DNA of 64,000 nt from a virus. This document shows, in pieces, positions 8,284-64,000 of this stretch. How positions within the stretch are numbered: the first letter of the stretch is position 1; each line of letters begins with the position of its first letter. The stretch is taken from IMG/VR virus record IMGVR_UViG_3300022839_000006, positions 29,896-93,895 of that record; one strand, written 5' to 3'. The notes beneath the pieces were generated by a model. That model was not told the origin of the DNA and made no database searches. It saw nothing but the letters and a program-made list of their open reading frames with translations. The position numbers and the translations under genes were made by a program.

Positions 8284-9009
8284 TTAGATTCTAAAATCTG
8301 TGTACAAATCCGCAGTTGTTGTGCCAAAACTAGTAACGATCAATTGGCCTGTTGCATTGTTTTTTATGCTACCAGTCCCAAATCCACCTGTCGAATTAAT
8401 GTCGCTCACACCACTGTCTACGTCTAGATCAGTACCACTAGCATTTTTAAACATCACCACTACCTTCTTACCAAGAACAATGTTTGTATATGCCACGGTA
8501 ACAGTTTCTCCTGTTATTGTGGCCAATACGTAATTGTCAGTAGCGAAGTCAATTGTAAGTGTTGAATCAGCACCAAACGAACCTGCGTTGCGCGTCCCGC
8601 CTTTATACGTTGTTGCTGCAATCATTGCATTTGCGTCACGTGCAACAATTTTGTTAGCAGTTGGTGTAGCTGTCGCATCGACAGCTAGTGTCCCTGATGC
8701 AGTTATGGTACCATCTGAACTAATGTTGACACCTGGGCCTACTTTGATCCCGCCAATTCTATTCTCTGTTCCAGGAAGCAAATTCATGATGCTGCCGTCC
8801 ATGTTGAATTCAGGGCCTGGCTGGACAGAACCAAGCGTTGCTGCTGTTGCTGCTGCTATGGTCTGTGGTATGCCACCAACTGTTTCACCATCGGAAAGCC
8901 TTAACAGCCCTACGTCTAAATCGAAGAACATTTCACCCTTCACACCAATATAACTTGCAGCATCAGTGCCACCCATATTATCAGTAAAAATCTTTGATGT
9001 TGTGGTCAT
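8284..9009 (-). CDS. tail-fibre-like protein
   Basis: Gly/Thr/Ser-rich beta-type sequence (IGGIKVGPGVNISSDGTITASG); preceded by a TATAAAAG box and GAGGA RBS. Confidence 0.6.
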   Translation of the reverse strand: MTTTSKIFTDNMGGTDAASYIGVKGEMFFDLDVGLLRLSDGETVGGIPQTIAAATAATLGSVQPGPEFNMDGSIMNLLPGTENRIGGIKVGPGVNISSDGTITASGTLAVDATATPTANKIVARDANAMIAATTYKGGTRNAGSFGADSTLTIDFATDNYVLATITGETVTVAYTNIVLGKKVVVMFKNASGTDLDVDSGVSDINSTGGFGTGSIKNNATGQLIVTSFGTTTADLYTDFRI

Positions 9010-9056
9010 CTTGGTTATCCTCTATGCATCTTATTAAGATACTTTTATACTATTTA
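9010..9056 (-). promoter_or_regulatory. copy 1 of ~45-bp late promoter/RBS cassette driving the tail-fibre-like gene
   Basis: Minus strand reads AAATAGTATAAAAGTATCTTAATAAGATGCATAGAGGATAACCAAGATG. Confidence 0.5.
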
Positions 9057-9134
9057 TGTGTTTTGTAAATTTGATCGAATTGACATTAAGCTAAGTAGCC
9101 ATGTATTGTGAATGACACAAACAGGAGAATTACA

Positions 9135-9425
9135 ATGCCGTCTAATAAACATCTAAAGCATTCCTTAGATATAGCTTATGAAGATATCATGGCTTCTGAA
9201 CAGCTTGTCAAAATGGTCAGACAAGGTGGAAAATCAGAGCAACTAGCTCAATACATCAACTTTATTTTGTCTGAAAATGTAGAACATGTCAGACCCTTTT
9301 ACGATAATGTAAACACCAAGGGCTGGGAGTCAGTTGTCCCAGATCCAGATCCTTTTGTGAGACCTGTATCGAACCCATCAAAGAAAAAACGCAATCAACT
9401 ACGTGCAAAGCGAAAGAAAAAATAA
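9135..9425 (+). CDS. hypothetical protein with basic C-terminal tail
   Basis: RBS ACAGGAG before MPSNKHLK; C-terminus KKKRNQLRAKRKKK. Confidence 0.45.
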   Translation: MPSNKHLKHSLDIAYEDIMASEQLVKMVRQGGKSEQLAQYINFILSENVEHVRPFYDNVNTKGWESVVPDPDPFVRPVSNPSKKKRNQLRAKRKKK

Positions 9426-9464
9426 AAATGTCTGTCACTGTCTTGTTTAAAAGGAATTTGAAAA

Positions 9465-9641
9465 ATGTTCTACCGCTTTAATTCTGGAAATTTTGTAGAA
9501 GCTGACAGCTTCCAAGAAGCTCAAGAGATTGCTATCCACTTGATACAGCAAGAAACAGAAGAGCCTAGAAAATGGCACAAATGCACGTGCTTAGGCTTTC
9601 AACATCGAATTGGTTGTCCGGAACACAATTGGGTCGATTGA
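9465..9641 (+). CDS. small hypothetical protein (58 aa)
   Basis: AAAGGAA RBS; ORF checked by hand. Confidence 0.3.
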   Translation: MFYRFNSGNFVEADSFQEAQEIAIHLIQQETEEPRKWHKCTCLGFQHRIGCPEHNWVD

Positions 9642-9780
9642 ACAGCCAAAACCGCTGCACAAGAAATGATTGAGCATCTTGATGAAGTGTGGATTTGTTT
9701 GATGCTCTGCTAAATTGGTGGTTGACTTCGCCCTTTGCAAACGGTACAACTAAGGCATAGGCAAACAAGAGGACAATGAG

Positions 9781-9972
9781 ATGAACGGTTACAAAGCTTT
9801 CTGGAAAGACAAAGAATGTGAAGTTTATGCAGACACTTCATATGCTGCACAAACCCAGGCAGTGGTTCAATTCCAGAAAATGGCTGGGCGCAAGAAAGTC
9901 AAATCATACGACGTCACAGTTGTGATCTGCGAGAAGAACGACTCACTAATCACGCATACTTTTTCGGAATGA
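9781..9972 (+). CDS. small hypothetical protein
   Basis: 63-aa ORF with GAGGAC upstream. Confidence 0.4.
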   Translation: MNGYKAFWKDKECEVYADTSYAAQTQAVVQFQKMAGRKKVKSYDVTVVICEKNDSLITHTFSE

Positions 9973-10136
9973 TGGCTGACACTGAAGTGTCCAAGTTAAT
10001 GTGCTGACAGATCAAGGAGAAATGAGATGATTATCTGGAAAGATGTTCCAATTGAAATTGTCGAAAAGGGCACGTTGACACCTGACCATCCATCTGCTAT
10101 AACTGATGTATAGAGCAAGTCAAAAAGGACAATGAC

Positions 10137-10424
10137 ATGGGTCGTGGAAAATATAGTGTTTCAGGTTACAAAAAATGGCCAGAAGGTTACGAGTTCAGTT
10201 ACAATCGTTACGGACAAGAATGTGCTCCTTGGACCGCTGAAATGATTAAGGACCCAGACCAAACCTATGACTCCAAGACAATGTTTGGCAATTATGATGA
10301 AGATGGATATGATAGCTATGGTTATTCATGTTTCGATGAAAATGGAACTGATGTTGGCTGTGGAAATGGGATCGACCGAGAAGGCTACACAGAACACGAT
10401 TACCTGTCAGAACAAGACTGCTGA
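10137..10424 (+). CDS. hypothetical acidic Tyr/Gly-rich protein
   Basis: 95-aa ORF, RBS AAAAGGACAATGACATG. Confidence 0.45.
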   Translation: MGRGKYSVSGYKKWPEGYEFSYNRYGQECAPWTAEMIKDPDQTYDSKTMFGNYDEDGYDSYGYSCFDENGTDVGCGNGIDREGYTEHDYLSEQDC

Positions 10425-10495
10425 CACGGCCTAACGACTTCACTATAGTCTTCCTATATGTAATTCACTCCCTCTGCACGAAAGGCACCGTCCAC

Positions 10496-10843
10496 ATGAG
10501 TAATGACACAACACGTGATAAGATTGCATTGATTCACGCACACGAGCGCCGCTCTGAATGGCCTGACGCACAAGACTTTTATGCAGCAGATGCTATCATC
10601 GCGGCTTTGTCAAGTGTGATTAAGCCACTGGCATGGGAGAAATCCGAATGTTATAAAGCCTTCGTTTCAGGTGATATGGTTGTACAGCATGAACACGACG
10701 AAAAAGGCAAAGGGACATGGACATTCGGACTCATGGACAATCAACTAATATCCGAGCACCCAACATCAGACGAAGCCAAAGCCGCAGCCAACAACCACTA
10801 TTGCGCTGCATGTCTGTTGCCGTTTGGTATAGTGTTGTCATGA
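10496..10843 (+). CDS. hypothetical protein
   Basis: 115-aa ORF. Confidence 0.45.
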   Translation: MSNDTTRDKIALIHAHERRSEWPDAQDFYAADAIIAALSSVIKPLAWEKSECYKAFVSGDMVVQHEHDEKGKGTWTFGLMDNQLISEHPTSDEAKAAANNHYCAACLLPFGIVLS

Positions 10844-11795
10844 CCGAGTGCCGAGCGTGATGTGTTCTGCTATTACATTGTGACTCTATCAGTCAAAGAC
10901 AGTAGAGGATCGTAATAATTATGCATGTCCATACAACTCAAAAGGATAATCTAATGAACATTGATTACAGCAAACTTCCCTTTCACATGCAAGACGGAAC
11001 AGGCGTTACATCGAGAATGGTATCCCACCAGGAGGATTCCTGTCAGCAGTAATTTGCAACGACTTGAGCGGGTGCATACGGTAAAGCAGACCACCACAAT
11101 CGCAGTGTAATTGAAGACTGGATTAGGTTCTTCCACAATGATGCTCCAGCAGATTGTTCGGGAAGCGTAGTCGCATTTAACGATTGGTGCAGGTCAGGCG
11201 GAACGATGAAAGGTGTTATGACATGAAAGTTTACATTTACTTAAATAACTGGCACATTGATTAGGAGACGTTTGGGACTGATATCGTCTGGGTGTCAGAT
11301 CAACTACATCCACCATATTCCAGATCTGAAATTAATGCATGACCAAGTGGAGTTTTGGGAAGATGGGACCAAACAATGGTCCAAGGAACATGACGGAAAA
11401 ATGTCACTAAATTGGATCTGATAAATAGAAGACAACCCAATGTCTAAACTTGCATTCATGGATGCAGAAACAAAAGAATACTTTGTCAACGAGAAATTTG
11501 ACAAGTTTAATTTCTCGTTGGACATCAACAGGGCAAAACTTTACTTTAGAACTCCTGGGGTTTTGAGTGGGTCAAACTCAAAACAAAAAGACAGTTGACA
11601 TTGGTTGAAGTTAAAATTGATAATAGAGGCACATCACTATTTCTCGATGAATTACATGATGGTCGACTCAAAGAGTTCCAGCGTCTAGATCTATTGGCAA
11701 CAAAGAACTTGGAAGAAATGGAGACATCGTCATATTATCGGTGGCGAACACCAAGGAAAGAACTTACAACTTAATTAACCAAAGGAGTTTTGGTA

Positions 11796-12809
11796 ATGAC
11801 TAAAGAATTTGATACACTTGTAACGGTAATGAGGATGCAACCATTCCACCTTGGTCACCAAGCAGTGATCGGCGCCGCATTGAAAAATGCACACGAAGTA
11901 ATAGTGGTAATTGGATCTAGCTTCCAACCACGAACCACAAAAAACCCATTTACATTTGAAGAACGCAAAGCCATGGTGCTTGCATGTTATCCTGATCTAC
12001 CAGTCCGAGTGGTTGGGGTTCGGGACTATCCTTATGACGACAATGCTTGGGTGTCTGCTGTTCAACATGTAGTGGATTCGGTTAAGACTGGTACTCGAAC
12101 AGGGTTGATTGGGCACTCCAAAGATTCAAGTTCATACTACTTGAAAATCTTTCCGAATTGGCGGAAACATGTGGAAGTTGAGAATTATCAGGGCATTAAC
12201 GCAACTGATATCCGATCGGATTTATTCTCCAATGGAGTATATTTTACGAGTGGTGTTTTGATGCCGCGATCGGCGCTGGCCTCCATGTCGATGGCATTGT
12301 TGGAAGGAACGTGGTGGCCTGATCTCAAAGAAGAACATACGCAGATTAAAGCATACCACGAGAAATGGGAATCAGCACCATATGCACCAACCTTTGTGAC
12401 AACGGATGCAGTGATTGTGCAATCTGCTCATGTGTTGCTAATCAAACGTGGCAACTTCCCGTTCAAAGATTGTTGGGCATTGCCAGGTGGGTACCTCGAA
12501 AAAGACAAGACAATTGAGGAAAACGTGATCAAAGAGCTCAGAGAAGAAACGTGCATCAAACTTCCTGCTAAGGTTCTTAAAGGTTCCATCAAGTCAACTC
12601 AAGTGTTTGATCACCCTGACCGTGATCCCAGAGGTCGTACCGTTACACACGCCTTTTATATTGATCTTGGATTTCCAGATGAGAAACTGCCCCGAGTAAA
12701 AGGTGCGGATGATGCAGTCCACGCAGAATGGGTTCCTCTCAGTCAAGTGTCAAGTGACATCATGGCGTTTGACCACTACTCTGTTATTTCACACTTTGTA
12801 AAAATTTAA
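11796..12809 (+). CDS. nadM: bifunctional NMN adenylyltransferase / Nudix hydrolase (NadM-Nudix)
   Basis: N-terminal nucleotidyltransferase (H/T)xGH motif MQPFHLGHQAV; C-terminal Nudix box GGYLEKDKTIEENVIKELREETCI; AAAGGAG RBS. Confidence 0.8.
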   Translation: MTKEFDTLVTVMRMQPFHLGHQAVIGAALKNAHEVIVVIGSSFQPRTTKNPFTFEERKAMVLACYPDLPVRVVGVRDYPYDDNAWVSAVQHVVDSVKTGTRTGLIGHSKDSSSYYLKIFPNWRKHVEVENYQGINATDIRSDLFSNGVYFTSGVLMPRSALASMSMALLEGTWWPDLKEEHTQIKAYHEKWESAPYAPTFVTTDAVIVQSAHVLLIKRGNFPFKDCWALPGGYLEKDKTIEENVIKELREETCIKLPAKVLKGSIKSTQVFDHPDRDPRGRTVTHAFYIDLGFPDEKLPRVKGADDAVHAEWVPLSQVSSDIMAFDHYSVISHFVKI

Positions 12810-13210
12810 ACAAGTCACACAACGGAGAAAAATTATGGAAAATCTGATCGAGGCATATTGAGCGAGAAAACAAAAGGAAACAATAAATGACAGCTCAGCA
12901 GAAATGAAATCAATTGACGACAATCTTTATTCTGGCCATGGAAGATACCGTGGTGTGTATATTGAATTATATGAGGGATAAAATGAAACGAACAGTTAGA
13001 ATTGCATTGAGAATTATTGGTTAACTATTACATGGAATGGGCATGTGACGCGGGACTGGCCGGTGGGGAACAATATACTCGATATTGCCAAGACATTACT
13101 GTTCTATATTTCCAGAAGATGTACTTTATGAAGATGTAACAAAAGAATACAGTTGACAACCAACACACTATAATATAAATAACAATATCATTAACTAGAG
13201 GAGTTCTATA

Positions 13211-14710
13211 ATGAAAAATATTCTAAGCCTGCTTACTTCCATCATGCGTACCGATGGATACAAGACTTCACAATTCTTACAATACCCAGCTGACACGCAA
13301 TACATCAGCTCATATATTGAATCGCGCGGCGGCGCTGACACCAGTGTATTCTTTGGTCTACAAGCATTCATCAAAGACTATATGCAAACCCCCATTACTC
13401 AATCCGATATCAACTTTGCAGAAGCAGTTTTTACAAAGTACGGTACTCCCTTCAACCGAGAAGGTTGGGAGATCATCGTCAACGAGTTTGATGGGTATCT
13501 GCCACTGGAGATTGAAGCGGTTCCAGAAGGTACTGTTATGACAACCAGAAACATCCAAGTTCAAGTTGTAAACACTGATCCCAGAATGGGATGGTTGACA
13601 TCATACGTTGAAACTGCTCTGCTACGTGGGGTATGGTATCCTTCAACAGTGGCAACCAAATCTCGCGAGATGAAGGTGATGATTGCACAGGCACTGTTCA
13701 AAACCAGTGACATCCCACTTGATATTCTAATGGGGCCTGTGTTGAATTTCACTCTCAATGACTTTGGTGCTCGTGGTGCGTCATCCACAGAGACTGCCGT
13801 TCTTGGTGGGATGAGTCACCTTGTAAATTTCTGGGGCAGTGACACAATTGAGGGCATGATTGGCACACATGTTTACTATTCTGCTGATATTACAGACGTG
13901 TCTACACCTGTTGTTGCAGGGTCAATCGCGGCAAGTGAGCATAGTAGTATTACCAGCTGGGGCAAGGAAAACGAAGGTAAAGCATATGCCAATATGATTG
14001 ACCAGTTCTCTGCGCCTGGTAAAATTTACGCCTGTGTCAGCGATTCATACGACATCTACAATGCAACCAAAAACATTTGGGGATATGAACTCAAGGTTCA
14101 AGTAATTGAATCGGGAGGCACTCTGGTTGTACGTCCAGACTCAGGTGATCCCGTTACTGTGCCAATCGAAATCCTTGACATTCTGGCAGAGCAGTTTGGA
14201 TACACTGTAAACAGCAAGGGATTCAAGGTTCTTGCGCAGCGTGAAGATGGGTCCGCCATTGTGAAAGTCATCCAAGGTGATGGTCTTGATGTGGTCACCA
14301 TGAAACAATTACTGGACAATGTGATTGAGGCTGGATACAGTGTGGAAAACATTGCGCTGGGCATGGGCGGCGGACTCTTGCAAAAAGTAGACCGTGACAC
14401 TCTGAAATATGCCATGAAGGCTTCTGCCAGATGCGATTCAGATGGAGTATGGCATGATGTGTTCAAAGATCCTATTGCAGATCCTGGCAAGACTTCCAAG
14501 AAAGGTCGGCTGGGACTGATCTACGAATGTGGAGTTGGTTCATGTGGTTACCGGACACTGCCCAAGGAATTTGCAGATGAAAAAGGCAATATCCTGCGTA
14601 CAGTGTACCGGAATGGCGTGCAATTAATTGACGATGATTTTGAAACTGTTCGAACACGGGCAGGTCTGAAAGAATCAGAATACAATCCACAACCAATTGA
14701 ACGATTCTAA
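13211..14710 (+). CDS. nadV: nicotinamide phosphoribosyltransferase (NAMPT/NadV)
   Basis: 499 aa; MRTDGYKTSQF N-terminus and FGARGASSTETAVLGGMSHLVNF core typical of the NAMPT family; RBS AGAGGAG. Confidence 0.85.
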   Translation: MKNILSLLTSIMRTDGYKTSQFLQYPADTQYISSYIESRGGADTSVFFGLQAFIKDYMQTPITQSDINFAEAVFTKYGTPFNREGWEIIVNEFDGYLPLEIEAVPEGTVMTTRNIQVQVVNTDPRMGWLTSYVETALLRGVWYPSTVATKSREMKVMIAQALFKTSDIPLDILMGPVLNFTLNDFGARGASSTETAVLGGMSHLVNFWGSDTIEGMIGTHVYYSADITDVSTPVVAGSIAASEHSSITSWGKENEGKAYANMIDQFSAPGKIYACVSDSYDIYNATKNIWGYELKVQVIESGGTLVVRPDSGDPVTVPIEILDILAEQFGYTVNSKGFKVLAQREDGSAIVKVIQGDGLDVVTMKQLLDNVIEAGYSVENIALGMGGGLLQKVDRDTLKYAMKASARCDSDGVWHDVFKDPIADPGKTSKKGRLGLIYECGVGSCGYRTLPKEFADEKGNILRTVYRNGVQLIDDDFETVRTRAGLKESEYNPQPIERF

Positions 14711-14826
14711 ACAAAACCTAATAGTCCAAGTGGGTGTCTACTTGGACTATTTTCGTGACAATAACAGTTGACATCATGCTTTGTAGACTGTAAAATTATA
14801 TTAACAGCAACAAAGGAATGTGTAAC

Positions 14827-14970
14827 ATGAAGATCTTAGCAACAAACAAAGATTTCAGAGTTGAGTTTAACCAGTCCTCAACATATTTCGTTATAGACAA
14901 CAACGGAGATTGCTGGAAAACCTACAAGAGTGAAAAAGCCGCAATCAAATATATGGACAGCGTCGCATAA
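14827..14970 (+). CDS. small hypothetical protein (47 aa)
   Basis: TTGACA-N17-TAAAAT promoter upstream, RBS AAAGGAA. Confidence 0.3.
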   Translation: MKILATNKDFRVEFNQSSTYFVIDNNGDCWKTYKSEKAAIKYMDSVA

Positions 14971-15298
14971 CAGTTTTCATGTGGCACCAAAGGAAATTAC
15001 ACCACGATCTATTATTTTCGTTGATAATGAAATGAATGAATATGATCAAGGTCGAAAAGACGTTCTTCTGGAACTGCTGACAAAGTTCAAGCCCTCACGA
15101 ACTTTACGGACATGCGTAATTACCCAGTGTGATTGTTGTGGGCGACAGCTTCACCCATTGAACACTTCAGGATATGGCACGTGTGATGCTTGTAAAATTT
15201 CACACAACTATGGTCAGGATTCGTTTGACATTCGATTGGCATATATGCTAATAAAGCGCGCAAACAGTATAACCAATTTGGAAACTGATAATAGATAA
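14930..15298 (+). CDS. hypothetical Cys-containing protein
   Basis: 122-aa ORF with GTG start overlapping the preceding small ORF; the true start may be the internal ATG. Confidence 0.4.
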   Translation: MKKPQSNIWTASHNSFHVAPKEITPRSIIFVDNEMNEYDQGRKDVLLELLTKFKPSRTLRTCVITQCDCCGRQLHPLNTSGYGTCDACKISHNYGQDSFDIRLAYMLIKRANSITNLETDNR

Positions 15299-15309
15299 AG
15301 GTGACTGAC

Positions 15310-15504
15310 ATGACGAAAAAACTGCACCCACACTCGGAACTAGAATATGTCAAGTGGCAGGCTGAAGTATTCAAACAGAATGACCGAAATAACAAGGAGA
15401 AGATAAAGAATGAAATGGAAGACCAAATCCAAAATCAAAGCTGGCTCACGAGACAACATGCATCCCTGGTTCGTTCGTGTAAAAAGCTATACTATATCTT
15501 TTAA
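15310..15504 (+). CDS. small hypothetical protein
   Basis: RBS AAAGGTGA before MTKKLHPH. Confidence 0.4.
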   Translation: MTKKLHPHSELEYVKWQAEVFKQNDRNNKEKIKNEMEDQIQNQSWLTRQHASLVRSCKKLYYIF

Positions 15505-15599
15505 GTAATTGCTTTGATGATGTACTGTGATAACTCGTTATGTCCACACTAAGCGCTTAGTGACGCTAAAGGACTGACTCAGTACATCTTCTAAGCATT

Positions 15600-15683
15600 G
15601 CCCAAGTACTCAAGTAGCTGATGTGGTCTTAGCGCCGAGTTGAAGCCTCGGAGATGTCTGTTCGATTCGGACCTTGGGCCCCA
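15600..15683 (+). tRNA. tRNA-like element (possible tRNA-Phe GAA) with an atypically long D-region
   Basis: 7-bp acceptor stem GCCCAAG/CTTGGGC then discriminator and CCA. T-arm is GTCTG-TTCGATT-CGGAC. Anticodon arm CCGAG-TTGAAGC-CTCGG has U33 and a purine at 37. The segment between acceptor and anticodon stem is ~9 nt longer than a canonical D-arm. Confidence 0.4.
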
Positions 15684-15726
15684 TATTACAACTGTCCTAT
15701 AACTTATGTACTAAAGGAGAAATAAG

Positions 15727-16173
15727 ATGATTGAGTATACAGTTAAAGTTAATGACACCGGAACTAAGTCTTGGTATCTCAACGGTAAGCTACACCGAGA
15801 AGACGGTCCTGCTGTTGAGTTGGTCAACGGTAATAAGTTCTGGTACCTTAACGATAAGCAACACCGAGAAGATGGTCCTGCTATTGAGTATGGCAATGGT
15901 GATAAGTGGTGGTACCTTAACGATGAGCAACACCGAGAAGATGGACCTGCTGTTGAGTACATCAATGGTTATAAGTCTTGGTACCTTAACGGTAGGCGAC
16001 ACCGAGAAGATGGTCCTGCTATTCAGTATAGCAATGGTAATAAGTCTTGGTACCTTAACGGTAGGGGCCTAACGGAGGCAGAACATAAAGCTGCTACTTC
16101 ACCTAAGGATACTTGTAATGGTAAAGAAGTAGTAATTGATGGTATTACTTATGTATTAAAGGAGAGTAAATAA
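15727..16173 (+). CDS. MORN-like tandem-repeat protein (4 copies of W-Y-L-N-G-x-x-H-R-E-D-G-P-A repeat), paralog 1
   Basis: AAAGGAGA RBS; internal ~72-nt periodicity; C-terminal LTEAEHKAATSPK...GKEVVIDGITY. Confidence 0.6.
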   Translation: MIEYTVKVNDTGTKSWYLNGKLHREDGPAVELVNGNKFWYLNDKQHREDGPAIEYGNGDKWWYLNDEQHREDGPAVEYINGYKSWYLNGRRHREDGPAIQYSNGNKSWYLNGRGLTEAEHKAATSPKDTCNGKEVVIDGITYVLKESK

Positions 16174-16174
16174 G

Positions 16175-16555
16175 ATGATTGAACATACAGTTAAAGTTTA
16201 TGACAATGGCACTAAGCAGTGTTACCTTAACGGTAAGCTACACCGAGAAGATGGCCCTGCTATTGAGTGGGCCAATGGTTCTAAGTGGTGGTACCTTAAC
16301 GATGAGCAACACCGAGAAGATGGACCTGCTGTTGAGTACATCAATGGTTATAAGTCTTGGTATCTCAACGGTAAGCTACACCGAGAAGGGGGACCAGCTA
16401 TTGAGCATAGCAATGGCGATAAGTATTGGTATCTTAACGGTAAGCTACTAACGGAGGCAGAACATAAAGCTGCTACTTCACCCAAGAAGAAGCCTAGTTG
16501 TAGTGGTAAAGAAGTAGTAATTGATGGTATTACTTACACCCTAAAGGAGAAGTAA
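16175..16555 (+). CDS. MORN-like tandem-repeat protein, paralog 2 (recent tandem duplicate)
   Basis: Nearly identical N-terminus MIEHTVKV, same repeat and C-terminal module, same RBS. Confidence 0.6.
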   Translation: MIEHTVKVYDNGTKQCYLNGKLHREDGPAIEWANGSKWWYLNDEQHREDGPAVEYINGYKSWYLNGKLHREGGPAIEHSNGDKYWYLNGKLLTEAEHKAATSPKKKPSCSGKEVVIDGITYTLKEK

Positions 16556-16556
16556 G

Positions 16557-16613
16557 ATGATTGAGTATACAGTTGAAGTTAGTGGCAGCGGTGCCATTGG
16601 AAGTTATAATTGA
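16557..16613 (+). pseudogene. truncated third copy of the MORN-like repeat gene (18 codons, MIEYTVEV...)
   Basis: Same AGGAGAAGTAAG RBS and start as paralog 1, then an early stop. Confidence 0.4.
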
Positions 16614-17006
16614 TACCATGAAACAGGCGCATTTGACGTAGAGGGCACAAATTAATTCGTTTCGCATGCCGATTATGCTTGTGGTCTGTGTCGCGTCACG
16701 CTATAAGTAATGCATAGCAAAGAAGCACACACCGGAGAATGACAATGACAAACCCAGCACACACAAAAGAGCAGATCGCAGCAGCAGCCGATTGTGAAAA
16801 AACATTCTTGCGCTTGATGAAAAAAGCAGGAAAGCCGGTGCGCAAATGAGCGCCGCACAGGACTACATCAACGATGCCCAAAACCGAATGGAAAGGTTGC
16901 ATCGTATCTCGGAAATGTACGCAGGCACGGAACGAGCGTTTGCGGCCATCCGATGTATTGAAAAGCGAAAAGCGCGAATGGAACCCACTACCACAGGAGA
17001 CAGAAA

Positions 17007-29691: not shown

Positions 29692-30156
29692 ATGAGACAA
29701 CTATTTTTAGACTGCGATGGCGTTCTTGCTGATTTTGACAAGCAGTTTGTATTGCTTGCAGGGACAACAGGTCAAACATACGAAGACGAACACGGTTCTG
29801 GAACTTTTTGGAATCTGATACAAAATTCCAAAAAGTTCTTTGAGGACATGCCTCTTATGTCCGACGCTCTTGAGCTGTATGCTGCTGTAAAACATCATCG
29901 CCCTATCATACTCACAGGATGTCCACGCGGGACCTGGTCTGTTCAGCAGAAGCTGATCTGGCGTGACAAACACTTCAAGGGCGTTCCAATGGTCACGTGC
30001 TTGTCTAGGGATAAGGTAGATTACTGTCAGCCAGGAGACGTCCTCGTCGATGATTTCTTGAAGCACAGCCAGAAGTGGATTGATGGCGGAGGAGTGTTTG
30101 TTCACCACACCAATACACCTTCGACATTGCAACAATTGAGCCAAATTGACCTTTGA
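29692..30156 (+). CDS. HAD-superfamily 5'(3')-nucleotidase-like phosphatase
   Basis: LFLDCDGVLADF motif I and downstream HAD motifs. Confidence 0.6.
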   Translation: MRQLFLDCDGVLADFDKQFVLLAGTTGQTYEDEHGSGTFWNLIQNSKKFFEDMPLMSDALELYAAVKHHRPIILTGCPRGTWSVQQKLIWRDKHFKGVPMVTCLSRDKVDYCQPGDVLVDDFLKHSQKWIDGGGVFVHHTNTPSTLQQLSQIDL

Positions 30157-48726: not shown

Positions 48727-49032
48727 ATGTCAGCAGTAGCAAGAGTCAGTGTGGATAATGTGAACACAGGACACGGATGTGATAGTATCGCGGGGATAGA
48801 AGGTCAACTACAAACCAAGGTTTTTATAAACGGTTCTCCTGCCGCTGTTATGGGCGACGCAATTGCTTCTCACACAATACTATCAGGTGGAAGCTGTGTG
48901 CCACACAGCGCTGTCATAAATCAAGGATCGTCAAAGGTTTTCTGTCAAGGGATCGCAATCGCAAGAGTGAACGATTCAGCTGATGCAGGTGCCGTCGCAA
49001 CAGGGTCACCTACCTGCTCTGCTGGAGGATAA
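48727..49032 (+). CDS. PAAR-repeat spike-tip protein (T4 gp5.4-like)
   Basis: GSPAAVMGD and IAIARVND PAAR motifs; ~100 aa. Confidence 0.7.
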   Translation: MSAVARVSVDNVNTGHGCDSIAGIEGQLQTKVFINGSPAAVMGDAIASHTILSGGSCVPHSAVINQGSSKVFCQGIAIARVNDSADAGAVATGSPTCSAGG

Positions 49033-51798: not shown

Positions 51799-53259
51799 AT
51801 GTGTACAAATAACGAGCTGGTCGCACTTGCAACAAAAATTGTCAAGTTGATAGGGAACGCTAAACAACACAAGGACAAGGTCCTACAAAATATTGATTCT
51901 GATCTACACGCACGTTTTGTAGAGTCGACAAGCTTCATGCCTGAGGATACCAAACTCTCACAGAGAGTTGCACATGGCCTGACAGGAATCGATCGTATGT
52001 TGATATGCGTTGTATGTGGTAACACACACATGAGAATATACCCTCCTTCCCAAAGAGATTATTGTTGTAAAGGGTGCTACTTTTCAGACACAAAAGCAAT
52101 GAAGCAACGCGTAAGTGTTGTAGATCAAACTGCACGTGTGAAGAAGATGGCACACACCAACAAAGTAAAGTACGGATACGAATTTAATAGTCAAAGACCC
52201 GACGTCAAAAAACTGTTGAGCAAATCTAAATTGGAACGTACCAATCCCGAGGCTGTAGACAGGCTCGCAGATAAGCTGTGGCTTGAAGAACAATACGCTA
52301 AACAAACCTCCGTTGAAATTTCAAACACTCTAAACGTGCATTACAGCACTGTTCTTTTCCACTTGAGAAAACATGGGATAGAAATAACACCATATGCAAA
52401 CACGAGTGCGGTTGAACGTAGTATAAACCAATTCATACTTGACAGTGGTGCACGAACAACAACGTCCACTCGTAACATTCTCACAGGCAACAGAGAGATC
52501 GACATCTATGTCCCTGAAAAACACCTCGCAATTGAAGTTAATGGGCTATATTGGCATAGTAGCACAGATTTCACCAATTCGGCCAAGCACTTAACCAAGA
52601 CGGAGGAGTGTTTGAGTAACGGGATTCGGCTCATACACATATCTGACGAAAAGTGGTTCACGAAGCCAGATGTTGTAAAGTCTATGCTGTTGAATAGACT
52701 CGGCATGTCTCAGACACGAATACATGCAAGACAATGTACGGTCAGGTCTGTAGATCCGTCTACATCCAACGAATTTATTAACAGAAACCACATCAATGGC
52801 ACAGCAAACGCAAACAAGAAGTATGGTCTATATCACAATGATGTGTTGGTATTGGTAATGACGTTTAGTAAATCACGGTATTCTAAGATGCACGAGTGGG
52901 AGTTAATAAGGTTGTGTTCTGCTCACAATACGGTTATTGTAGGAGGAGCATCTAAAGTATTTCAACACTTCATTAGAGAGCAGTCGCCTATCAGCATTAT
53001 GACTTATGCTGATAGGCAATATGGAGAGGGACACGCATATCCAAAACTTGGCTTTAAATTTTCTCACATTACCAAGCCAGGATATTCCTGGACAGATGGC
53101 AATAAAACTTACAATAGAATCAACTTTCAAAAACACAAACTCCACAAACTACTAGATGTCTATAGTGACAGCCTGACAGAAAGAGAAAACATGATTAACA
53201 ACGGATATCGTTTATATTTCGATTGCGGTCACAATGTTTATGAGTGGAGCCAACAATAA
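51799..53259 (+). CDS. hypothetical protein with Zn-ribbon, HTH and a possible endonuclease-like region
   Basis: CVVCGNTH...CCKGC Cys cluster; HTH-like ISNTLNVHYSTVLFHLRKHGI; IDIYVPEKHLAIEVNGLYWH resembles restriction-endonuclease-like/DUF559 cores. Confidence 0.45.
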   Translation: MCTNNELVALATKIVKLIGNAKQHKDKVLQNIDSDLHARFVESTSFMPEDTKLSQRVAHGLTGIDRMLICVVCGNTHMRIYPPSQRDYCCKGCYFSDTKAMKQRVSVVDQTARVKKMAHTNKVKYGYEFNSQRPDVKKLLSKSKLERTNPEAVDRLADKLWLEEQYAKQTSVEISNTLNVHYSTVLFHLRKHGIEITPYANTSAVERSINQFILDSGARTTTSTRNILTGNREIDIYVPEKHLAIEVNGLYWHSSTDFTNSAKHLTKTEECLSNGIRLIHISDEKWFTKPDVVKSMLLNRLGMSQTRIHARQCTVRSVDPSTSNEFINRNHINGTANANKKYGLYHNDVLVLVMTFSKSRYSKMHEWELIRLCSAHNTVIVGGASKVFQHFIREQSPISIMTYADRQYGEGHAYPKLGFKFSHITKPGYSWTDGNKTYNRINFQKHKLHKLLDVYSDSLTERENMINNGYRLYFDCGHNVYEWSQQ

Positions 53260-53320: not shown

Positions 53321-54622
53321 TTAGAACAGGTTGTTAACAACCACTTTGCGGTAGTACTCGTTCGTTGCAGACTGCAGACGACCAAGTCCTTGAGCGCTAC
53401 CTTCTGCAAAAGGATTCGCGACCATGCCGTAGCGTGTCTTGAAGCCGATTTTTGGTTGGAAGCTATTCTCACCGATTGCACGCACCATCTGAAGCGGAAC
53501 ATATGGGCAGTAGAAGATTCCCGCATCAAATGAAGAGGAGCCTTTGTAGCCGACTACAAGGTAGTTGTTGCCTGCATATGGATCGATGTATACGCGGTAA
53601 CGACCATTAAGAACACCTGCGAAAGTATTGCCTGTGTCATCAACTTGTAGGTTGTTGCTGTTAAGTGCTGGTGTATAATCAAGTACGCCTGCCATCTGAA
53701 GTGCGGAAGCAACATCAGAAGAACAAATTACCAGATTGCCTTTGCCGCGACGAGTAGCTTTTGCAATTGCGTTTGCTTCCGTCTCGATTTGGAACATCAG
53801 ACCCTTGAACTTCTCAACAGACCAGCGACCGTTTGCATCGACATCAAGGTCGAACACACCTGGCGTTGCTGTTCTTTGAGCTCCGACGACTGCGTTAGTA
53901 AAGATTGTACGTACAACTTCACGGTTGATTTCAACAAGAATCTCGCTCGAAAGAATGTTTGCGAGTTCTGTTTCTGCGTCAAGACCGTGAACAGCACGAA
54001 GATCCTGTGCAAGTTCAGTGGTGTATTCCGCTTTCAGTGCGCGTGTTTTTGCTTCAACAGCAACTTTTTCAATTGAGAAAGCCATTTCTGCGAAGGGTGT
54101 TGCACCACCTGCAGCACCAAGTGCTTCTGCAGCTGCTGTGTTCATGCCCGTACCGAAGTCTGCGTTACCTGGAAGGCCTGCTGTGTTGGCTGTACCAGTA
54201 CCACCAAAGGCGGTGTTGGCTTCGTTGTAGAATGCTTCGTCGCCTGCTTGTGATGCATACTTGGAGCGCATTGCAAAGATCAGGCCAGTTGGACCTGTCA
54301 TTGGCTGTACGCCACAAATGTCGTATGCAATCAAATTTGGCATTGCACGACGAACCAGGCTGATAAGTACTGGGTCATAACCAGCGACTGGACCTGCAGC
54401 AGCTGCTCCGGCAGAGAAGCCACCAGTCCCAGCATCGTTGGCTGGCGATTCATTGAGCAATGAAGTCATTGTAACGCCCGTACGATCTTCTGCAAGTGCC
54501 TTCTCAGTGTTCTCAAGAATTGTTGCAGTCACGCCACGACGGTACTTGTCTTTGATTGATTCGAACTGATCGTGGTCCAGAATCGGTGCCCACTTTTCTG
54601 TTAGAAGATTATGTTGACTCAT
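53321..54622 (-). CDS. g23: major capsid protein (T4 gp23-like)
   Basis: IAYDICGVQPMTGPTGLIFAM core, 433 aa, sits at the end of the g20-g21-g22-g23 block. Confidence 0.85.
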   Translation of the reverse strand: MSQHNLLTEKWAPILDHDQFESIKDKYRRGVTATILENTEKALAEDRTGVTMTSLLNESPANDAGTGGFSAGAAAAGPVAGYDPVLISLVRRAMPNLIAYDICGVQPMTGPTGLIFAMRSKYASQAGDEAFYNEANTAFGGTGTANTAGLPGNADFGTGMNTAAAEALGAAGGATPFAEMAFSIEKVAVEAKTRALKAEYTTELAQDLRAVHGLDAETELANILSSEILVEINREVVRTIFTNAVVGAQRTATPGVFDLDVDANGRWSVEKFKGLMFQIETEANAIAKATRRGKGNLVICSSDVASALQMAGVLDYTPALNSNNLQVDDTGNTFAGVLNGRYRVYIDPYAGNNYLVVGYKGSSSFDAGIFYCPYVPLQMVRAIGENSFQPKIGFKTRYGMVANPFAEGSAQGLGRLQSATNEYYRKVVVNNLF

Positions 54623-55722: not shown

Positions 55723-55829
55723 AGTAGATTTTTCCTTTTTGTTTATAGATCACGATTATTTATAATATTTTATTTCTCAAGGTTATTTATCAAGATGAGA
55801 ATTTCTATTTAAAACAAAATTCCCAACTG

Positions 55830-59828: not shown

Positions 59829-59860
59829 GTTAATTGTTCTCCTTGTTATATCTATTTATA

Positions 59861-61810: not shown

Positions 61811-62623
61811 CTAGAGCCAGCTGTTGTACCGTACAGGCATATCATCTTCTTCTAGCTCGTCACCTATACTTACAAAGCCGAAAGGGAGTAATTCTTCCTC
61901 TATTTGTTCTTCGCTCTTTTCACGCAATTTCATCATTGTGTTGATGTCAGTCAGGTCTTTGAAGTAACCTTGATCAGTTAACCACGAAAACAGAACCAGG
62001 GTCATAACAAGATCATCGTGTGAGCCAGATTCTGCCTCATATGATAGACCCTTCTTAGAGAATTTGGAAAGCTCTTGAATGGTGTTGAAATCTGGAACGA
62101 GCAATTGGTTCTGCTCGATTAACATTTTTAGAATTGAACAGCCGATAGATTTTACTGATTTTGTTGTTCTGATACCTCGATCTACATTCTTACCAAAACC
62201 GCCAGAGACTCTTTTTCCCGACCGGCCTCCATTTTCTGTCATGACAAGATTTTCATATCCATAGTCAAGGAAAAGAATGTCTGATACCTGACCACCTATG
62301 TCATTGACCTCGACCATAACATGTGCTTCATTATAAAGCGTCGCAACTCTAAATATAGTAGCGGCATAATCAACAGGGCCAGTAAAATTATCTCTAAATG
62401 TACACACTTGCTTGTACGGCATTTGAGTTATGTCCAGAACAGAGAAAGCAGAATAATCCAAACCTTTGCCACGAGAAACATCAACTACCATTGCATATGT
62501 ATGACCAGTAACAACAGGGTCATACTGAAGCAGGCCCTCACTTTGAGTCACTGGTTTTGAATGTGCCATTTCTTTGAGTTTCTGTCCTGCGATCAAAGTA
62601 CCAGAGCTGCCAAGGAATTCGCA
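61811..62623 (-). CDS. g17: terminase large subunit C-terminal (nuclease) extein
   Basis: Begins CEFLGSSGTLI straight after the intein HN; RNase-H-like nuclease domain with MVVDVSRGKGLDYSAFSV. Confidence 0.75.
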   Translation of the reverse strand, partial: CEFLGSSGTLIAGQKLKEMAHSKPVTQSEGLLQYDPVVTGHTYAMVVDVSRGKGLDYSAFSVLDITQMPYKQVCTFRDNFTGPVDYAATIFRVATLYNEAHVMVEVNDIGGQVSDILFLDYGYENLVMTENGGRSGKRVSGGFGKNVDRGIRTTKSVKSIGCSILKMLIEQNQLLVPDFNTIQELSKFSKKGLSYEAESGSHDDLVMTLVLFSWLTDQGYFKDLTDINTMMKLREKSEEQIEEELLPFGFVSIGDELEEDDMPVRYNSWL

Positions 62624-62956
62624 GTTATGAGATACCATATTATTAGTATAATATTTGTGGCCGTTGCTCACTTCAAGCGCGTCGTATACATCCGCAGTTT
62701 CATTCTTATCTATAGAAAGAGTTGCTACTCTCGAATAGCCGCTCTTCGTTTTCAATCTCGATCCTATATATAAATTCTGCGCTTGTATAAACCCTGCTTC
62801 AGTCTCTATTTTATGATCCAGCGTACATTCTAATAGATTGCCGATTTCATCTACAATGGTTACTATACCGGTAGTGGTTTTTTTATACACACCGTGAAAA
62901 TCCGCCCATCCACTGTCCGTTAGTATTTCATACTGGGTGTTGTTCTTTTTCGTCAT
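62624..62956 (-). other. intein C-fragment (111 aa: blocks B, F, G) translated from its own ATG and RBS
   Basis: Block B GNLLECTLDHKIET, block F ADVYDALEV, block G NNMVSHN then Cys+1. Confidence 0.7.
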
Positions 62957-63140
62957 GGTAGGTCCTTTGTGGGAATGCCTTTTCTCTATGGTGTTGTTCT
63001 TATAGCAGCCGGCACCACATCACATGTTTCAGCGCGCCACAGAACGAGAAGCGGACTTCTCGTTAAATCTCCTTTATTCTTTCTTCTGGAGTCGTTCGCC
63101 GCGATTTGTACACGTGTGTTTTCTCATCTCCATCCTATTT

Positions 63141-63148
63141 TATTTATA
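63141..63148 (-). promoter_or_regulatory. late promoter box TATAAATA inside the 203-bp gap between the terminase halves
   Basis: Minus strand reads GATTTATAAATAAAATAGG ~185 nt upstream of the IntC start. Confidence 0.45.
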
Positions 63149-63162
63149 AATCAAGGAATTCA

Positions 63163-63258
63163 CAAGTGCAAATTTTCATAAAGTTCTTCTATGAAGATCG
63201 TTTTTATCTCGCCTGTTTCTTTGTCTCTTATGGTGATTTGAGTGTTGCCCTTCACGCA
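63163..63258 (-). other. intein N-fragment (32 aa: block A only) fused to the end of the terminase ATPase ORF
   Basis: C-VKGNTQITIRDKETGEIKTIFIEELYENLHL then a stop; block A C-x-x-G-x-T. Confidence 0.7.
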
Positions 63259-64000
63259 GCAATATTCTTGCGCAAACTTGTCTTGGTCGTGATCAAGAGC
63301 TTCGAGAGTTTCCTGTTTCCAAGCTTCACCTCTGCCTGGGACATCATTCCACATAACACGTACAAACTCATATCCGTTGGTGCCTTCCTCTGCACCTTTA
63401 CAGGTTTTCCAATAGTGGTTAATGCCATTTGGAGTTGAAGTCATTAATAATTTTGTTGTCTCGCCGGACGAAATTGTAGGATAAACAGAGGCGAAGAATT
63501 CATCGTACCCTTCGATAAACGCGACCTCGTCGAGATACAGAAACGAGATTGACTTGCCTCGAATTGCACTTGATGACGTAGTGCCTGCATATATCTTACA
63601 ACCGTTTTCTAATTCTATAGAGCCTTTGTTCCACTCCTCTACGCCTTGCTGTAGCCACCTAGGGAGCGCCTCGTACGCAAGCTGAATTCTATTGAGAACT
63701 TCTCTTGCAGAGTCACCTTTATTTGCAAGGATTGCTGCTGTCTTATATTCGTTAAATAGAATATAGTGTAGAATCACGGCTGCGGCAGTTGTGGTTTTGC
63801 CACTTTGCCTTGCTGTCAACACCGCAACTCTTCTATTATCTGTAATTTTACGGACAATTTCCTCTTGGTAACCGTACATTTCAAACGGTATAAGCCCTTT
63901 GTCTACGTGCACAATTTTTATATATGTCTTGGCAAAATATACCGGATCGTTGGCACATTTCATGTACTCTTGTAGTAATTCCGGCGTCCATTCAATTGCG
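63259..64000 (-). CDS. g17: terminase large subunit N-terminal (ATPase) extein; 5' end beyond window
   Basis: Walker A TARQSGKTT and Walker B FLYLDEVAF; frame is open to the window edge. Confidence 0.75.

Follow-up and report, generated by a model that had tools for sequence, protein, structure and literature searches.

Genomic setting of the nadM-nadV locus

The viral DNA analyzed here, a stretch of 64,000 nt covering positions 29,896 to 93,895 of IMG/VR record IMGVR_UViG_3300022839_000006 (the window hereafter; the genome exceeds 100 kb), carries two neighboring genes, nadM and nadV, whose products would together make nicotinamide adenine dinucleotide (NAD+) from nicotinamide, and each gene is preceded by a short hairpin built around its ribosome-binding site (RBS). 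A T4-type structural block lies on the minus strand in the T4 order (terminase, sheath, tube, portal, protease, scaffold, and major head protein), the window also encodes a Dda-like helicase, an ATP-dependent ligase, RNase H, and PhoH, and the major head protein is 62 to 65% identical to its homologues in phiN3, DLP_6, Melnitz, and cyanomyoviruses; as judged from its genes, the phage is an uncultured T4-like myovirus. No near-identical DNA was found among cultured phages, and the genome is known from metagenomes only. The same sequence (100% identity) occurs in a 107-kb MEGAHIT metagenome contig (ENA ERZ27315662) and in the Logan assembly of SRR7528443, over 7.5 kb and 5.6 kb, indels included, in assemblies made by different software. 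IMG/VR supplied 28 loci with a related nadV, and the main comparison relative was L023 (IMGVR_UViG_3300037332_000228; ~90% DNA identity to the window). The KVP40-like phage PVA23 served as the stand-in for KVP40, two 45- to 50-kb stretches of the KVP40 record being without nadV or natV. The features of the region are collected in Table 1.

Table 1. Features in and around the nadM-nadV pair, in window coordinates (ORF, open reading frame; aa, amino acids)
Feature	Position	Strand	Basis	Remarks
Pseudogene 1	10956-11226	+	Three-frame translation, alignment	Homologue of an intact 90-aa gene, L023:1601-1873
Pseudogene 2	11223-11421	+	Alignment, ORF lists	Homologue of an intact 66-aa gene, L023:2098-2298
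Pseudogene 3	11440-11774	+	Alignment, ORF list, promoter scan	Homologue of an intact 120-aa gene, L023:2317-2679
nadM RBS hairpin	11778-11794	+	Pattern scan	ACCAAAG-GAG-UUUUGGU; 7-bp stem; ATG 1 nt after the stem
nadM	11796-12809	+	Pfam, NCBIfam, and PDB matches	Predicted bifunctional NMN adenylyltransferase and Nudix hydrolase, 337 aa
nadM-nadV spacer, deletion scar	12810-13156	+	blastn against L023, L023 ORFs, translations	
TTGACA and TATAAATA upstream of nadV	13153-13158; 13174-13181	+	Both conserved in L023	Putative function
nadV RBS hairpin	13196-13208	+	Pattern scan, fold	Core UAGAG-GAG-UUCUA, 5 bp; ends 2 nt before the ATG
nadV	13211-14710	+	Pfam NAMPT_N and NAPRTase	Predicted Nampt-type nicotinamide phosphoribosyltransferase, 499 aa
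Terminator-like hairpin	14720-14751	+		10 nt after the nadV stop; 14-bp perfect stem, 4-nt loop, then UUCG
sigma70-like site TTGACA-17-TAAAAT	14768-14796	+	Promoter scan, 11/12	

Predicted enzymes and pathway

NadM has a two-domain organization, in which a nicotinamide mononucleotide (NMN) adenylyltransferase domain (residues ~1 to 170) is followed by a Nudix hydrolase domain (residues ~195 to 337). The ORF caller places its start at TTG 11790; the ATG at 11796 has a correctly spaced GGAG upstream. Pfam scores are 32.9 bits for CTP_transf_like and 62 bits for NUDIX, and the protein aligns over its full length with NCBIfam NF003786 (bifunctional NMNAT/Nudix; 373 bits, equivalog cutoff 397), with Synechocystis NadM-Nudix (2QJO, E = 1.8e-75), and with the Francisella enzyme (2QJT, E = 1.2e-64). 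The nucleotidyltransferase motifs H18-L-G-H21 and N135-A-T-D-I-R140 are intact and align with those of 2QJO and 2QJT, and the Nudix box, G232-x5-K238-x7-K246-E-L-R-E250-E251-T-C-I, keeps the glutamates E247, E250, and E251.

NadV scores 533 bits against NCBIfam NF006629 (phosphoribosyltransferase; cutoff 405) and, among PDB entries, 430 bits against the bacterial Nampt of Xanthomonas (7YQO), 345 bits against human NAMPT, and 159 bits against phage Namat (9W5X). All of the residues checked against human NAMPT are kept: D15, Y17, F185, R188, and D211 align with human D16, Y18, F193, R196, and D219; the catalytic H244 (in AASEHS), R308, and D310 align with H247, R311, and D313; and QGDG and GGGLLQK...RD align with G353-D354, G383-G384, and R392. 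The GGGLLQK helix matches human Nampt exactly and is without the two aromatic residues that define the selectivity-clamp helix of Namat. Because its Nampt scores are far above the Namat score and the aromatic clamp helix is absent, NadV is assigned to the Nampt enzymes, which use phosphoribosyl pyrophosphate (PRPP), and not to Namat.

Both genes are under purifying selection, since the ratio of nonsynonymous to synonymous substitution rates (dN/dS) against L023 is 0.16 to 0.23 (0.22 for nadM; 0.16 and 0.23 for the N- and C-terminal halves of nadV), and both look functional. As predicted from strong homology and intact catalytic residues, NadV would convert nicotinamide and PRPP into NMN, and the N-terminal domain of NadM would convert NMN and ATP into NAD+; the C-terminal Nudix domain probably hydrolyzes ADP-ribose, as in the solved bacterial homologues. 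The original prediction had named these two enzymes, paired them as a nicotinamide-to-NAD+ pathway of the KVP40 (NARP2) kind, and listed inactivating substitutions at catalytic residues as the result that would speak against it. The lengths and Pfam domains of the two ORFs (CTP_transf_like plus NUDIX, NAMPT_N plus NAPRTase) bear out the identities, the pairing agrees with the definition of NARP2 given below, and no inactivating substitution was found at the NadV residues checked, nor in the HxGH and NAT-x-x-R motifs or the three Nudix glutamates of NadM.

NARP2 is defined as a KVP40-type Nampt plus an Nmnat, the latter being encoded by 94% of the phages with that Nampt; it is present in ~1.1% of phages, its toxicity and PRPP cost have been noted, and no phage with both NARP1 and NARP2 was found (bioRxiv 10.1101/2024.02.11.579819). 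The window contains a KVP40-type Nampt homologue, and the Nmnat homologue, nadM, is located on the same strand 401 bp upstream of nadV; a scan of 30 window ORFs (10 against PHROGs, 20 against Pfam) turned up neither Adps nor any PRPP-synthetase-like protein. A survey of viral NAD systems reported that all phages with NadM also have NadV. Among cultured-phage records, a NadM homologue is found in 486 and a Nampt or Namat homologue in 2013.

The pair would restore NAD+ when host defenses such as Thoeris, DSR, and SIR2-HerA cleave it; this proposed role is based on the KVP40 genes, because these showed it experimentally by abolishing type I Thoeris and DSR2 defense and rescuing an engineered phage (bioRxiv 10.1101/2024.02.11.579819). 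A general metabolic booster, acting in nucleotide and redox metabolism or host-protein ADP-ribosylation whether or not a defense is present, is a possible but less probable role. KVP40 NARP2 raised NAD+ even in defense-free cells, and earlier KVP40 work called it a salvage pathway (bioRxiv 10.1101/2024.02.11.579819); the window, moreover, offers no defense-related context, the neighbors being small ORFs of no known function without Pfam matches. Against the booster stands the loss of both defenses to the same two KVP40 genes, and the metabolic and counter-defense roles are not exclusive.

A different allele of nadV is found in L023 (L023 6001-8900), where the gene is split into ORFs of 258 and 261 aa by a homing endonuclease gene of the SegE-like GIY-YIG type (444 aa; Pfam, 25.5 bits; phrog_314, 100.8 bits) inserted directly after the catalytic histidine motif (ASEHS). 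The window carries the uninterrupted allele, and the DNA flanking the insertion point (13941-14087) has no blastn alignment to L023. A group I intron was considered as the cause of the split, and no Rfam match reached the gathering score; a free-standing GIY-YIG endonuclease gene seems the simpler reading. In addition, L023 8881-9386 repeats the last ~22 nadV codons (compare window 14640-14710); this second copy follows the first at a distance of ~420 bp, two small ORFs lie in the interval, and the arrangement suggests an insertion by which the 3' end of nadV was duplicated. The window has a single copy.

Hairpins at the ribosome-binding sites

In the nadM hairpin, GGAG, the Shine-Dalgarno sequence, covers both the closing G.U pair and the loop; the fold has a free energy of -3.7 kcal/mol alone and -4.7 kcal/mol in context. 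L023 has this hairpin sequence unchanged; in related nadM genes, the stem letters differ but the architecture is kept. At nadV, an outer helix between UCAUUA (13188-13193) and UAAUGA (13209-13214) also pairs the AUG, and the extended structure (13188-13214) reaches -4.9 kcal/mol; in relatives, the stems at this position covary (UAUAG/UUAUA, GCAAAAG/UUUUUGC, CAUAAG/UUUAUG). When the last 110 nt before nadV are aligned across all loci, almost nothing is conserved except the RBS, and its conserved form is stem-G[GAG]U-stem, then 0 to 4 nt, then ATG, with stem letters that differ by locus. The original prediction mentioned neither these RBS hairpins nor the late-promoter motif upstream and the terminator-like hairpin downstream of nadV.

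The hairpin is strongly associated with a small set of genes. Within the window, it occurs at gene starts only for nadM and nadV. Across the window and 27 nonredundant related loci, 44 of the 50 hairpins with a stem of at least 6 bp are located at nadM or nadV start codons; five of the other six are at the starts of pnuC (PF04973), a 213-aa ORF (phrog_1843), and a 120-aa ORF, and one, in the window, lies off gene starts. When ORFs of at least 80 aa led by GGAG are compared, a stem of at least 5 bp is present at 50 of 58 nadM, nadV, and pnuC genes versus 0 of 164 other genes (Fisher P = 1e-41), which rules out a general property of GGAG RBSs in these phages. In all fetched loci, the hairpin is found at 110 of 119 NAD genes, and it is also present at natV of the KVP40-like PVA23, nadM of RB43, nadM and nadV of DLP_6, and nadM of XacN1. 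Scans of IMG/VR that were blind to genes gave a similar picture: of 47 exact matches to GCAAAAGGAGTTTTTGC, 32 lie ahead of nadM, nadV, pnuC, or the 213-aa ORF, and 12 of the 20 matches to TTAGAGGAGTTCTAA that precede an ORF start do so at nadV or nadM. In cellular genomes, none of the 80 matches fetched (of at least 120) precedes a nadM-, nadV-, or pnuC-type gene, and inheritance of the hairpin from cellular NAD genes was rejected on this count. The RBS hairpin is a phage-wide signature of the NAD+ salvage genes nadM, nadV, and pnuC; it appears to be an undescribed one, extending across sipho-, myo-, and jumbo phages, and a literature search found no described hairpin at phage Nampt genes.

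The covariation pattern supports a genuine structure. Over 28 distinct sequences, 85% of cells are paired compared with 57% in shuffles, 68 cells are double changes compared with 23.6 ± 3.3 in shuffles (0 of 500 reached this number), and compensatory changes are seen in 7 of 8 pairs, the exception being the outermost one, which is unpaired in most sequences. The alignment has a covariation score of 0.78, versus 0.22 or less for slid registers. The hairpin matched no Rfam family in window 9000-17000 (E ≤ 1) or in L007 3450-6100 (E ≤ 10).

The elements are near-perfect DNA palindromes, and the bacterial regulators NrtR and NadR use palindromic operators, so that action on DNA was weighed, either as operators of dimeric repressors (host NrtR or NadR) or as recombination sites that shuffle cassettes, the nadM-nadV junction being an insertion hot spot. 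We consider this improbable. Pairing is maintained although the letters of the half-sites change freely, which fits poorly with base-specific recognition by a protein; the elements are found only on the coding strand ahead of a gene, at a fixed distance of 0 to 4 nt from the start codon, and are centered on the Shine-Dalgarno sequence and not on a promoter; and 21 of the 28 sequences have G.U as the closing pair, a mismatch in DNA. NrtR and NadR, which both regulate bacterial NAD genes, bind a 21-bp palindrome with a GT-N7-AC core and TGTTTA-N6-TAAACA, respectively; neither core is present in the 28 aligned elements, and both operators were ruled out. The free variation of stem letters, the fixed distance to the start codon, and the G.U closing pair argue for an element that acts as RNA.

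Among RNA-level candidates, the T4 endoribonuclease RegB cleaves single-stranded GGAG followed by an A-rich tract (GGAGRAYARAA) and is inhibited by secondary structure; a RegB target was ruled out because the GGAG here is base paired and followed by a U-rich sequence. A CsrA-type GGA-loop site was also considered, but it would not explain the restriction to NAD genes.

On the mRNA, the hairpin would occlude the RBS, and occlusion would throttle or coordinate translation, the pathway being a drain on PRPP and reportedly toxic; translational control of some kind is the function toward which we lean. That the hairpin is restricted to genes linked in function points to a signal or factor common to them. 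A more ambitious proposal, which we put forward as speculation, is that the hairpin is the operator of a phage-specific posttranscriptional NAD+ salvage regulon, in which a common signal opens nadM, nadV, pnuC, and the 213-aa gene together. Such a signal could be a metabolite acting on the RNA (NAD+, NMN, ADP-ribose, or nicotinamide) or a protein encoded by the module (NadM-Nudix or NadV) that binds its own mRNAs, and the costly pathway would then be translated only while NAD+ is being destroyed. If the hairpin does control translation, it would explain how phages carry a toxic, PRPP-draining pathway, and it would provide a simple sequence tag for further members of the regulon, e.g., phrog_1843.

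Two further ORF families carry the same RBS hairpin and adjoin nadM in relatives, namely, phrog_1843 (213 to 214 aa; L007 3645-4286 and L009 3188-3832) and phrog_23161 (120 aa; L009 3880-4242). Neither has a Pfam match or a homologue in the window; both are candidate unrecognized members of phage NAD+ salvage.

A second hairpin is located 4 to 13 nt upstream of the RBS hairpin in 33 of 68 distinct nadM, nadV, pnuC, and phrog_1843 leaders. It has a covarying stem of 4 to 10 bp and a conserved pentaloop (AGAGA, AGUGA, or AUAGA), and the two hairpins together form a motif of ~45 to 55 nt, for which no Rfam match was found. It occurs in L007, L011-L021, L001-L003, L006, and other loci but not in the window or L023; it could stabilize the 5' end or form part of a ligand- or protein-binding element.

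Decayed neighboring genes and putative transcription signals

The pair is surrounded by DNA of low coding density. The nadM-nadV gap measures 401 bp, and the 10860-11790 stretch upstream of nadM holds no ORF longer than 61 aa; at the corresponding places, L023 has ~12 small ORFs. Because these stretches align, piece by piece, with small genes that are intact in L023, the low-coding DNA is read not as leader sequence but as what is left of seven or more small accessory genes, ~5 further L023 ORFs having been lost outright.

Three pseudogenes precede nadM. Pseudogene 1 has a 1-bp deletion and a 1-bp insertion ~70 bp apart, resulting in an in-frame stop. Pseudogene 2 carries a nonsense mutation (TAT to TAG, 11262-11264) and has lost 2 bp; the 62-aa L023 ORF directly upstream of its homologue, with a TTGACA box downstream, is deleted in the window (~225 bp). 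Pseudogene 3 is split into ORFs of 52 and 59 aa by a 10-bp deletion and has three in-frame 6-bp deletions besides. Between nadM and nadV, L023 has an interval of ~2.3 kb with ~8 small ORFs, of which ~1.9 kb is missing in the window; the lost part held, among others, a 49-aa hydrophobic-rich ORF and a P-loop protein. Four remnants are left in the spacer: at 12835-12861, a stub (MENLIEAY*) from a gene of 71 aa; at 12857-12880, the terminal 24 nt of a gene of 106 aa; at 12877-12985, a gene of 58 aa with an internal deletion of 71 bp; and at 13065-13156, the 3' end of a gene of 140 aa, frameshifted by the loss of 1 bp. Wherever both genes are on one piece, nadM is upstream of nadV on the same strand, with a spacer of 64 to 4,088 bp among 25 related loci; in cultured relatives, the spacer consists of one or two small hypothetical genes, and its content is unrelated.

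Putative transcription signals flank nadV. The motif TATAAATA is the T4-type late-promoter octamer, and the copy upstream of nadV is located 30 nt before its ATG. The window has seven copies of the octamer compared with 1.9 ± 1.4 expected (3753, 13174, 44582, and 48688 on the plus strand; 55757, 59853, and 63141 on the minus strand), and copies are positioned 25 to 35 nt upstream of the scaffold gene (55757-55764, minus strand), the tail-tube gene (59853-59860, minus strand), and an ORF at 48727, a distribution that fits T4-type late promoters in this phage. The TTGACA box upstream of nadV is separated from TATAAA by 15 nt in the window and 17 nt in L023. Downstream of nadV, the hairpin at 14720-14751 folds with -19.6 kcal/mol (z = -3.78; 0 of 200 shuffles as good) and is a putative terminator with a short U tract. 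Because the octamer and TTGACA lie upstream of nadV and this strong hairpin lies downstream, nadV may form a transcription unit of its own, for which the relevant upstream DNA is ~60 nt and not 400.

Upstream of nadM, the best sigma70-like site is TTGACA-18-GATAAT (11595-11624, 11/12), located inside pseudogene 3. The same two hexamers are 24 nt apart in L023, and the 18-nt spacing of the window was made by a 6-bp deletion; the site could be due to chance or could be a promoter that arose through gene decay. Over the whole 5.4-kb region, the promoter scan gave 21 promoter-like sites compared with 13.0 ± 3.4 expected, a modest excess, and it found no passing site in the nadM-nadV spacer.

The original prediction saw in these stretches a 400-bp leader and a 930-bp upstream region with sigma70-like boxes and, hence, separate regulation of the two genes. 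The low coding density is confirmed, and both stretches do contain a TTGACA box, but regulatory leaders (a riboswitch, long 5' untranslated regions, or dedicated promoters) conferring separate control are now highly improbable: both stretches align piecewise to intact L023 genes with frameshifts, a nonsense codon, and deletions, and the so-called leader is a deletion scar with fragments of four L023 genes. A riboswitch or other structured leader in the spacer was ruled out, since its fold is equal to that of shuffles (z = 0.01) and the Rfam search of window 9000-17000 (E ≤ 1) returned only tRNA-Phe and a chance speF match; the spacers of relatives vary widely in length and are unrelated in content. 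As for the sigma70-like boxes, the 11595 site exists but its spacing is not conserved in L023; of separate regulation, what survives is the possible transcription unit of nadV, the low-coding flanks themselves being gene remnants.

Sequencing or assembly errors in a region that is really densely coding deserve the least credence, since, although two lesions of pseudogene 1 each alter one base in a short homopolymer (AA to A, GG to GGG), two assemblers gave identical sequence, the lesions elsewhere include a nonsense substitution and deletions of 2, 10, and 71 bp and of kilobase size, and the adjacent nadM and nadV are free of frame errors.

Assessment of the locus

Taken together, window 11796-14710 is best read as an intact NARP2-type (KVP40-type) NAD+ salvage pair that persists amid decayed neighbors and carries short RBS hairpins, a reading to which we assign a probability of roughly 80%. 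Several points weigh against it. Only 64 kb of the genome is visible, and Adps (NARP1) or other NAD genes may lie elsewhere; the proposed anti-defense role competes with the general metabolic one. NadM falls short of all NCBIfam equivalog cutoffs, and its Nudix box departs from GX5EX7REUXEEXGU at three sites (E to K238, R to K246, and G to C253), because of which the activity or substrate of this domain may differ. Position 238 is unconserved and varies within the subclade of the window, K246 is fixed as lysine throughout the subclade, and position 253 is nonglycine in all aligned relatives and in both solved NadM-Nudix enzymes. As to the hairpins, the sequences in the covariation analysis were chosen by a scan that required four contiguous (inner) pairs, and the independent test is limited to the outer pairs, the next three of which are paired in 96%, 89%, and 75%. 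The hairpins of the window, at -3.7 to -4.9 kcal/mol, are weak and do not surpass shuffles of the same short sequences (z from -0.4 to -1.8), and the nadV core stem has only 5 bp; because of this weakness, any effect they have may be modest or need a partner.

The gene pair adds one uncultured T4-like phage to an already characterized pathway. Comparison with L023 shows selection directly, in that both NAD+ genes have been kept whole and seven or more neighbors are being deleted or broken, and the survival of the pair amid decay argues that the pathway may earn its keep in nature.

Other features of the window

An HNH-type homing endonuclease gene (486 aa; 51799-53259, plus strand; phrog_3339, E = 6e-105) adjoins, in convergent orientation, the major head protein gene (53321-54622, minus strand). 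The gene for the terminase large subunit is split over two ORFs (61811-63963, minus strand). Its N-terminal ATPase part ends in ...AQEYC and is followed by CVKGNTQITIRD...HL-stop, a short N-intein of ~32 aa; a ~200-bp gap holding one of the TATAAATA copies (63141-63148) separates it from the second ORF, in which ~110 aa ending in ...VSHN precede CEFLG and the nuclease domain. The best PDB matches are the engineered consensus intein CatC (6DSL_B, E = 1e-7) and VidaL, both atypical split inteins; the terminase thus looks like a carrier of a naturally split atypical intein, a known class.

Downstream of nadV, tRNA-Phe (GAA) at 15608-15683 is followed by two tandem paralogous genes (15727-16173, 148 aa; 16175-16555, 126 aa) with WYLNGKLHREDGPA-type repeats and a weak MORN_2 match; the two copies are ~87% identical in DNA.

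Comparison with known systems

The window pair resembles KVP40 NARP2 in having the same two enzyme families, with the NMNAT fused to a Nudix domain as in KVP40 NatV, and both phages are T4-like myoviruses. The natV of KVP40-like PVA23 has the same type of RBS hairpin (UGGG-GAG-CCCA); however, no Nampt gene is present within 3 kb of natV in PVA23, whereas the genes of the window pair are 401 bp apart, and the window NadM is only 33 to 37% identical to KVP40-like NatV proteins. The closest cultured NadM homologues are those of the roseophages DSS3P8 (47%) and RcXuper (54%). Among cellular enzymes, Synechocystis slr0787 (2QJO) and the Francisella protein (2QJT) share the full-length alignment, HxGH, (S/N)(S/A)T-x-x-R, and Nudix E-x-x-E-E with NadM, but they have E and R where NadM has K238 (GX5E) and K246 (REUXEE). 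NadV has the catalytic histidine and the PRPP- and NMN-binding residues in common with the Nampt enzymes of Xanthomonas (7YQO) and human; the phage Namat of NARP1 (SpbetaL1, 9W5X) is set apart by its far lower score and by the aromatic selectivity-clamp helix.

The RBS hairpin is comparable to the NAD+ riboswitches of class I (nadA motif) and class II (pnuC motif), reported from Acidobacteria and Streptococcus, in being a cis-acting RNA upstream of NAD-related genes, pnuC included, and class II likewise involves the Shine-Dalgarno sequence; those riboswitches are ~50 nt or longer, however, whereas the window element is only 13 to 27 nt and is matched by no Rfam model. FourU RNA thermometers are hairpins that sequester the Shine-Dalgarno sequence. 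The likeness to them lies in a short hairpin directly before the start codon, in which a run of U residues pairs with purines at or before the Shine-Dalgarno sequence; in contrast, the phage element is tied to one functional gene set across many unrelated phages, its loop is always the GAG of GGAG, and no temperature link is known.

The locus also resembles the hyperplastic regions of T4-type genomes, in which conserved genes are separated by runs of small ORFs with rapid turnover, accompanied by homing endonucleases and by short spacers that bear promoters; the window differs in that turnover is caught in the act, with seven neighbors decaying and the two enzyme genes kept.

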